From Escherichia coli (GTDB lineage Bacteria; Pseudomonadota; Gammaproteobacteria; Enterobacterales; Enterobacteriaceae): DNA of 64,000 bases. The notes under the pieces are model-generated. The model made no database searches. It was not told the origin of the DNA and saw only the letters and a list, made by a program, of their open reading frames with translations. Where the stretch lies: assembly GCF_050920415.1 (NCBI RefSeq), contig NZ_CP169310.1. The stretch is one strand, 5' to 3'. The position numbers and the translations under genes are program-made. Positions 25,283-25,762 of this stretch are shown here, piece by piece (position 1 is the first letter of the stretch; the number at the start of each line of letters is the position of its first letter).

Positions 25283-25762
25283 TTAACTATTACACCAATG
25301 CTGAAAAAGAAAAACAATCCCTTCGACAGGTGTATCATAACATTTACACGATTGATTCATTAATATTCCATAAATAATTTTTTTTTCTGAACATGACGGT
25401 GCATGGACTGGTGGATATGAAGTCGGACTCAAACTTCCTTGTGATATAAATAACGATAACCCTAGGGCTCCTGACTGAGTAGAAAATCCTGCAGACTCGG
25501 CGTTTTTAAATATTTCCCACCGTTGTTCTTCATCTCCTTCCTTCCATTTTACAATGGATTGTAAAAGCACTGAGTCTTCTTCAGAAGATGACTGAGAGAT
25601 AAATTGCGCCAGCCATTTAATTAATGTTAACGAATCTGTATTCTCTATCCAGAAATTAAGTGCATCCTGCCATTTTCCTTTTAGCAGCATTTGCTCAACA
25701 ATCTTATTAAACTCCAGAGCAGAGTTGTTTTTAGAATCTGTCATATGAAATCCTTTATCCAA
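25283..25762 (-). CDS. hypothetical protein between vgrG and PAAR (candidate adaptor, immunity or cargo)
   Basis: 159-aa ORF overlapping vgrG end by 8 bp; no family recognised. Confidence 0.4.
   Translation of the reverse strand: MDKGFHMTDSKNNSALEFNKIVEQMLLKGKWQDALNFWIENTDSLTLIKWLAQFISQSSSEEDSVLLQSIVKWKEGDEEQRWEIFKNAESAGFSTQSGALGLSLFISQGSLSPTSYPPVHAPSCSEKKIIYGILMNQSCKCYDTPVEGIVFLFQHWCNS

Follow-up and report, generated by a model that had tools for sequence, protein, structure and literature searches.

A DUF6931 family protein encoded between vgrG and a PAAR gene in an Escherichia coli type VI secretion cluster: a candidate accessory protein of the VgrG–PAAR spike

Results

The gene and its cluster

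The window (the whole stretch of 64,000 nucleotides of Escherichia coli DNA analysed here, from contig NZ_CP169310.1) contains a complete type VI secretion system (T6SS) cluster on the minus strand at 12053..33377. The genes are arranged in the order tssB-tssC-hcp-tssE-tssF-tssG-vgrG-DUF6931-PAAR-tssA-tssJ-tssK, followed by insertion sequence (IS) remnants and tssL-tssM-tssH. The subject of this work is the small DUF6931 gene located between vgrG and the PAAR gene (Table 1). The open reading frame (ORF) that an earlier note on this DNA had placed here is present on the minus strand; in its mechanical form it starts at a TTG codon, spans 25283..25762 and encodes 159 amino acids (aa). The TTG start is unlikely. 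The junction from the end of vgrG (C-terminus VNIG-stop) to the start of the gene reads GTG AAT ATT GGA TAA AGGATTTCAT ATG ACA GAT, and an AAGGA Shine–Dalgarno sequence precedes the ATG at 25744. The methionine at this ATG is the N-terminus in most close homologues and in RefSeq WP_000132334.1, whose coordinates and product name on plasmids pOkiPb01715_1 and pCFSAN004181P are those of the coding sequence in Table 1. Judged from these signals, ATG 25744 is the likely start codon and the protein has 153 aa. With this start, the gap to vgrG is 10 nt; the overlap with the vgrG stop codon described in the earlier note exists only for the TTG-extended ORF.

The PAAR gene begins 15 nt past the DUF6931 stop codon and has its own GGGAG Shine–Dalgarno sequence. 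The tight packing of the genes (gaps of 10, 15 and 3 nt) suggests that vgrG-DUF6931-PAAR-tssA form a single operon. The earlier note was right that VgrG lacks a C-terminal extension and that the PAAR protein is minimal. The PAAR protein is close to SalCis10 (phmmer E 1.4e-33). In Salmonella enterica subsp. salamae, SalCis10 is the tip protein that caps the spike of an extracellular contractile injection system with a solved structure (PDB 9rce). The neighbours of the DUF6931 gene are T6SS core genes, with no immunity-like partner gene nearby, and the cluster in the window has no FHA, kinase or phosphatase gene and no TvpB- or TvpC-like genes.

Table 1. Features of the window discussed in the text
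Feature	Position	Strand	Description
Hcp-position protein	30898-31398	minus	'hypothetical' in RefSeq; no NCBIfam model match
vgrG	25755..27737	minus	660 aa; TssI/VgrG core and gp5-like β-helix; without C-terminal effector extension
Upstream extension to TTG	25745..25762	minus	probably untranslated; contains the vgrG stop codon (25755-25757) and the AAGGA Shine–Dalgarno sequence (25751-25755)
DUF6931 family protein, coding sequence	25283..25744	minus	153 aa, stop codon included in span; purifying selection, Pfam match, AlphaFold2 model
Most conserved part of the protein (residues 72-116: EEQRWEIFKNAESAGFSTQSGALGLSLFISQGSLSPTSYPPVHAP)	25397..25531	minus	from alignments and model; helix 5, helix 6 and start of the proline-rich loop
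PAAR gene	24968..25267	minus	99 aa; canonical PF05488, residues 24-91, E 4.4e-20
tssA	23888..24964	minus	starts 3 nt after the PAAR stop codon; same tightly packed operon
IS110-family and IS3-family remnants	19113-21441		between tssK and tssL
Second ImpA_N/VasL-type protein	7741-8826	minus	downstream of tssH
AvrPphF-family type III effector (annotation)	6834-7430	minus	198 aa; weak EspJ ADP-ribosyltransferase match, E 3.2e-07
Hypothetical protein	6154-6762	minus	202 aa; downstream of tssH

Family assignment and selection

The ORF was previously described as unassigned. Both RefSeq and Pfam place the protein in DUF6931 (PF22011; hmmscan against Pfam-A, E 1.4e-11, residues 17-128 aligned to positions 3-118 of the 145-position model), a family without known function, and all 20 of the E. 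coli records listed carry the annotation 'DUF6931 family protein'. Within the family, the protein belongs to a divergent, Enterobacterales-type branch. The same Pfam-A search gave no match to the adaptor families DUF4123, DUF1795 and DUF2169, which had been suggested for a profile check, nor to MORN_2 or FHA; the only other line was a chance match to Adipogenin (E up to 10). A search of NCBIfam, including the models of the T6SS core components, returned chance matches only (15 bits or less), and searches of PHROGs and PADLOC returned nothing. In the literature searched, DUF6931 is mentioned once, in passing, in a 2026 preprint on Pseudovibrio.

With the E. coli-type profile, a search of 1.84 billion proteins gave only 34 representative clusters. 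These comprise Enterobacterales (E. coli, Salmonella, Citrobacter and Rahnella) and distant members of 183-225 aa, one group of which includes a sequence from a Bryobacteraceae metagenome-assembled genome (MAG). A search seeded with the distant branch identified further members, including Sphingomonas, and a single peptide pattern gave 241 relatives in the Joint Genome Institute (JGI) metagenomes. Pattern scans were carried out on alignments A4 and A6, as A3 and A5 were too diverse. DUF6931 homologues occur in several phyla, from Enterobacterales to Acidobacteria. One candidate member of 3409 aa (P0056) was judged by its sequence to be a spurious repeat match and was discarded.

Compared with the chromosomal allele of E. 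coli M18, the ratio of nonsynonymous to synonymous substitution rates (dN/dS) is 0.22 for the DUF6931 gene, 0.24 for VgrG, 0.24 for TssK, 0.14 for TssF and 0.037 for PAAR. Amino-acid identity to the M18 allele is 79% for the DUF6931 protein, 81% for VgrG, 80% for TssK and 79% for TssM; PAAR, at 98%, is far more conserved than its neighbours. Across genera, identity is 72–76% for PAAR, 36–42% for VgrG and 26–35% for DUF6931. The 1 kb around the gene is present in 98 of 5426 complete E. coli genomes, as a single copy in each (51 chromosomal, 47 plasmid). Large E. coli plasmids match the window at 99.5–100% identity over the 1 kb tested, among them pCFSAN004181P and pOkiPb01715_1, plasmids of about 224 kb whose sources were ground beef and bovine faeces; the coordinates of this T6SS region in the window are the same as in pOkiPb01715_1. 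The dN/dS value, the identity to M18 close to that of VgrG, TssK and TssM, the recurrence in 98 genomes and a confident AlphaFold2 model together establish that the ORF is a real gene under purifying selection, evolving at a rate like that of VgrG. The earlier note would have been contradicted by a profile match to a structural component or by an ORF that is not translated; no core structural family was matched, and selection acts on the protein.

Conservation of the vgrG-DUF6931 arrangement

Gene context is the strongest evidence on DUF6931. The metagenomic survey covered 80 loci, whose neighbours were classified by hidden Markov models built from individually examined loci; it contains 79 distinct DUF6931 genes, and the 66 with at least 400 nt upstream are the denominator for the neighbour counts. 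VgrG is encoded directly upstream in 61 of the 66, and two more have the order VgrG-PAAR-DUF6931, giving 63 of 66 with VgrG in the same module. PAAR is directly downstream in 48 of the 66. The order tssG-vgrG-DUF6931-PAAR-tssA is found in all nine reference-genome loci (two from Kosakonia, one from Ewingella, three from Rahnella, one each from Tatumella and Yersinia massiliensis, and one MAG). Individual loci show vgrG-DUF6931-PAAR-tssA (Rahnella and one unassigned contig), clpV-hcp-vgrG-DUF6931-PAAR (a JGI contig) and vgrG-DUF6931-PAAR (L009 and L020). On a contig of 70% G+C (L008), hcp-hcp-vgrG-DUF6931-PAAR closes the cluster and is followed by rpmI-rplT-pheST. The downstream PAAR recorded in the JGI contig, L008, L009 and L020 is of the PF05488 type. 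The vgrG-DUF6931-PAAR module moves as a unit, as the end of the L008 cluster illustrates. A Bryobacteraceae-related contig carries vgrG-DUF6931 with no PAAR gene. In Salmonella enterica, tssA directly follows vgrG-DUF6931, and in Sphingomonas the pair is followed by the gene of a T6SS FHA protein with a PP2C phosphatase gene next to it. One fragmented assembly (L023) was excluded from the synteny analysis. Overall, VgrG is the near-constant partner of DUF6931; PAAR is the usual one, not an obligatory one.

Two contigs carry two vgrG-DUF6931 pairs each. The paralogues share 67% (VgrG) and 72% (DUF6931) identity on L042, and 55% and 52% on L080. The two genes duplicate together and diverge in step, as cognate-specific helpers do. 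The second pair on L080 is followed by a PAAR gene with a C-terminal HExxH extension, which is the order of a chaperone and then its client. The extension of this PAAR protein (L080 8514-9422) is 200 aa long, contains the HExxH motif VVLHESAHSI and may be a metalloprotease-type toxin domain.

The same position could also be that of a small secreted cargo, an effector that rides the VgrG–PAAR spike and acts outside the producing cell; we consider this unlikely. The precedent is TseF (PA2374, H3-T6SS), a protein of 178 aa encoded directly after vgrG3, whose homologues likewise lie in synteny with genes for VgrG and PAAR and which has no immunity gene and is reported to be secreted (PMC5379069). 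The DUF6931 protein is likewise small and soluble with no immunity gene nearby, and, as neither VgrG nor PAAR carries a toxin domain in this cluster, any cargo must be a separate protein. However, TseF homologues are described as carrying MORN_2 motifs (PMC5379069 supplement), whereas the DUF6931 protein has none and its model is all-helical. We therefore rejected homology to TseF, which resembles the DUF6931 protein in gene position alone. Effector genes tend to differ from one cluster to the next, whereas DUF6931 keeps the same slot across several phyla and evolves at a core-like rate. The one-to-one duplication with vgrG also argues against cargo.

Association with FHA domains

FHA domains are cytoplasmic phosphothreonine readers and are used in a T6SS assembly checkpoint. 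One DUF6931 homologue (P0127, 335 aa) has an N-terminal FHA domain at 23-87 (E 4e-12) and a full-length DUF6931 domain at 184-328 (E 6.7e-42); the family profile matches its C-terminal domain with an hhalign probability of 98.8%. The fusion of some homologues to a cytoplasmic phosphothreonine-binding domain is a further point against secreted cargo, and together with the Sphingomonas arrangement it favours a function within the producing cell. The association with FHA is occasional. An FHA protein is encoded no more than 2.5 kb downstream in three of the 46 loci with enough sequence. At L068 (4318-5186) and L096 (4535-5456), the order is vgrG-PAAR-DUF6931-FHA protein, not vgrG-DUF6931-PAAR. 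We also considered a relationship of DUF6931 to the C-terminal domain of the T6SS FHA protein from Sphingomonas; with an hhalign probability of 0.3%, the two are unrelated.

These data bear on a regulatory role, in which DUF6931 would be a checkpoint component that couples spike availability to T6SS assembly. It would act via the FHA/threonine-phosphorylation pathway where this is present and as a VgrG licensing factor otherwise, as in E. coli. The P0127 fusion, the Sphingomonas gene that adjoins a T6SS FHA protein with a PP2C phosphatase gene nearby, the FHA proteins that follow the module at L068, L072 and L084, and fold matches in AFDB to Planctomycetes FHA-domain proteins (query-normalised TM about 0.72) are all consistent with such a role. 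Yet an FHA protein follows in only three of 46 loci, the cluster in the window has no gene for an FHA protein, kinase or phosphatase, and DUF6931 shows no relationship to the C-terminal part of the T6SS FHA protein. We regard a checkpoint role as improbable; it overlaps with an accessory role at the spike and does not exclude it.

Predicted fold and conserved core

The AlphaFold2 model, calculated from a 44-sequence alignment, is confident (mean predicted local distance difference test score (pLDDT) 93.4, predicted template modelling score 0.87); the model obtained with only 11 close homologues (pLDDT 48.5) was not usable. The model has eight helices (3-21, 25-34, 38-50, 55-66, 72-85, 90-101, 119-135 and 139-152), and residues 102-118 are non-helical, yet confidently modelled. 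The protein has no membrane span (maximum 19-residue hydropathy 0.78). Its isoelectric point (pI) is 4.9, and the pI is below 6 in 41 of 44 family members. DUF6931 is thus predicted to be a small, acidic, soluble, all-helical protein.

The most conserved part of the protein is formed by residues 72-116, with the consensus RWxIF..A...GFxTPxGxLGLSLFWSxGSMSP...PVYP. R75 and G103 are invariant across the family, and G86, L94, F99, S104 and P107 are nearly so; the protein from the window carries R75, G86, F99, G103-S104 and P107. We propose that this segment may be a partner-binding surface. The cysteine motifs near the C-terminus to which the earlier note drew attention (PSCSEKK, QSCKCYD and HWCNS) are present in the protein, but they are not a feature of the family. 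The number of cysteines ranges from 1 to 7 and no cysteine or histidine column is conserved. Among close E. coli-type relatives, C151 is the only invariant cysteine; C118 is replaced by tyrosine in several and C135 varies. We rejected metal binding through cysteines, which has no support from the alignments. Nor do the family alignments contain a conserved motif for catalysis or metal binding, which also speaks against secreted cargo.

Foldseek found no match in the PDB (best E 1.8), and the only match with E below 0.001 in a search of PDB sequences with the family profile was a designed repeat protein. Against AFDB50, Foldseek returned Enterobacterales family members and, at a query-normalised TM of about 0.72, Planctomycetes FHA-domain proteins of 300 aa and proteins annotated as HEAT repeats. 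We conclude that the fold is a bundle of helical repeats and that no solved structure is convincingly related to it. A fold comparison did raise SsdAI (PDB 7JTU chain B), the immunity protein to the deaminase toxin SsdA, and with it the idea that DUF6931 is an immunity protein of this type that neutralises a T6SS toxin. The identity to SsdAI is 8%, the fold similarity is marginal, and generic helical repeats follow close behind (Z 6.9, 6.8). Foldseek does not retrieve SsdAI or any other PDB chain, and the family profile matches neither SsdAI nor any other immunity protein in the PDB. SsdAI is encoded beside its toxin, whereas DUF6931 is encoded between a VgrG and a PAAR protein without toxin domains, and an orphan immunity gene would not be expected in a fixed vgrG-PAAR slot across phyla. 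An immunity function is very improbable.

Other features of the window

The protein in the Hcp position is 53.5% identical to its M18 counterpart, compared with 96% for TssC and 86% for TssE; this could reflect replacement of the allele or a tube protein under diversifying selection. Where the IS remnants separate tssK from tssL, the gap in M18 is 371 nt. The T6SS genes are all intact, and the IS insertion may uncouple the expression of tssL-tssM-tssH. The T6SS region (12000-33400) has 37.5% G+C compared with 41.8% for the whole window and 48–58% for homologous clusters of other Enterobacterales, which suggests a low-G+C donor or long residence on AT-rich mobile DNA. The genes downstream of tssH (6154-8826) are candidate T6SS cargo, and similarly annotated genes flank the M18 cluster; the EspJ match of one of them (6834-7430) is far below the family cut-off. 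Elsewhere in the window, the plasmid accessory genes that the matching RefSeq record annotates include RelE/Phd and PemK/PemI toxin–antitoxin pairs and a UilS-family quorum-quenching N-acyl-homoserine lactonase (38027-38549, 44944-45535 and 46195-47055).

Discussion

The reading that we favour, and to which we give about an even chance, is that DUF6931 is a cytoplasmic, chaperone- or adaptor-like accessory protein of the T6SS that is dedicated to its cognate VgrG and acts on the VgrG–PAAR spike. Expressed from the compact operon that also encodes VgrG and PAAR, the protein would use its conserved helix-loop core (residues 72-116) to bind the spike, at the distal β-prism of the cognate VgrG, at the PAAR cone or at both. 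By doing so it may keep the VgrG–PAAR tip competent for assembly, or escort the tip to the baseplate, and would itself be neither a toxin nor part of the fired spike. We infer the physical binding, the choice of partner, the timing and the release before firing. As far as sequences can tell, the evidence leans to an accessory or chaperone function over that of an effector. The earlier note had proposed an adaptor, a chaperone or a small effector from the position of the gene. The link to the spike is strengthened by the synteny with vgrG and PAAR; the adaptor families named there, the cysteines and the overlap with vgrG do not hold up.

How accessory proteins load the T6SS spike is understood for a small number of families, namely DUF4123, DUF1795 and DUF2169/Tvp. 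The closest parallel to DUF6931 is DUF2169/TvpA (Burkholderia TagA/B-5), which is also encoded between vgrG and the gene of the tip protein, is widely conserved and is not an effector (PMC11883445, PMC13373197, PMC6335564). The same group includes tagA/B-5, tagB-5 and tagC-5 of Burkholderia T6SS-5 (PMC6335564). As described in two of these papers, DUF2169/Tvp proteins are required for a secretion-competent VgrG–tip spike, and a loop of DUF2169 contacts the tip domain (PMC11883445, PMC13373197). The two families differ, however, in several respects. There is no sequence match between them, and the fold of DUF2169 is described as novel. DUF2169 is strictly associated with DUF4150/PIPY 'PAAR-like' tips, whereas DUF6931 precedes a canonical PF05488 PAAR, a type reported to need no chaperone. 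TvpB- and TvpC-like genes are absent from the cluster in the window. Burkholderia TagC-5 was considered as a relative and rejected, as it belongs to a different family, DUF3540; YezP was judged not to be comparable. DUF4123 (Tap-1/TEC) and DUF1795 (Eag) proteins are likewise small, cytoplasmic and encoded beside vgrG, directly upstream of the client that they load onto the spike. These clients are large toxins with immunity genes after them, whereas here a PAAR protein of 99 aa and then tssA follow.

Several points weigh against an accessory role at the spike. The literature searched yielded no binding, secretion or knockout data on any DUF6931 protein. Canonical PAAR proteins are reported to bind VgrG unaided (PMC11883445). 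SalCis10, the close relative of this PAAR protein, caps a solved spike, and no PDB chain matches DUF6931; these two observations imply that DUF6931 is probably outside the finished spike and may be dispensable for PAAR docking. There is no PAAR gene beside DUF6931 in Salmonella (L022), at a Bryobacteraceae-related locus (L005) or in Sphingomonas (L021), and PAAR therefore cannot be the sole client. The FHA fusion comes from one contig of 1.5 kb, to which only fold-level matches in AFDB are added. Finally, TseF of Pseudomonas aeruginosa, in the same gene position, is a reported secreted effector (PMC5379069).

A broader version of the accessory reading, which we put forward only tentatively and regard as doubtful, is that DUF6931 is an unrecognised, multi-phylum spike-assembly factor, unrelated to DUF2169/Tvp, which would be needed for VgrG spikes with a canonical PAAR cap and in some lineages would be wired directly to the FHA checkpoint. 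A need for DUF6931 with canonical PAAR would contradict the view that PAAR and VgrG bind unaided.

That the gene exists is not new, since databases already list it as DUF6931. What is new relative to the literature searched is the near-invariant linkage to vgrG, the paired duplication, the FHA fusion and the predicted acidic helical fold with its conserved loop. DUF6931 stands apart from the known accessory families, has a fold of its own and is among the genes most tightly linked to vgrG of those examined. If it is needed for spike formation, the list of T6SS accessory proteins grows, and the view of canonical PAAR as free of helpers needs qualifying. If it is secreted instead, DUF6931 would represent a broadly distributed effector that lacks an immunity gene. 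For this plasmid, a vgrG-PAAR region without a toxin means that the cargo of the T6SS would be encoded elsewhere, for example by the EspJ/HopF-like gene downstream of tssH.
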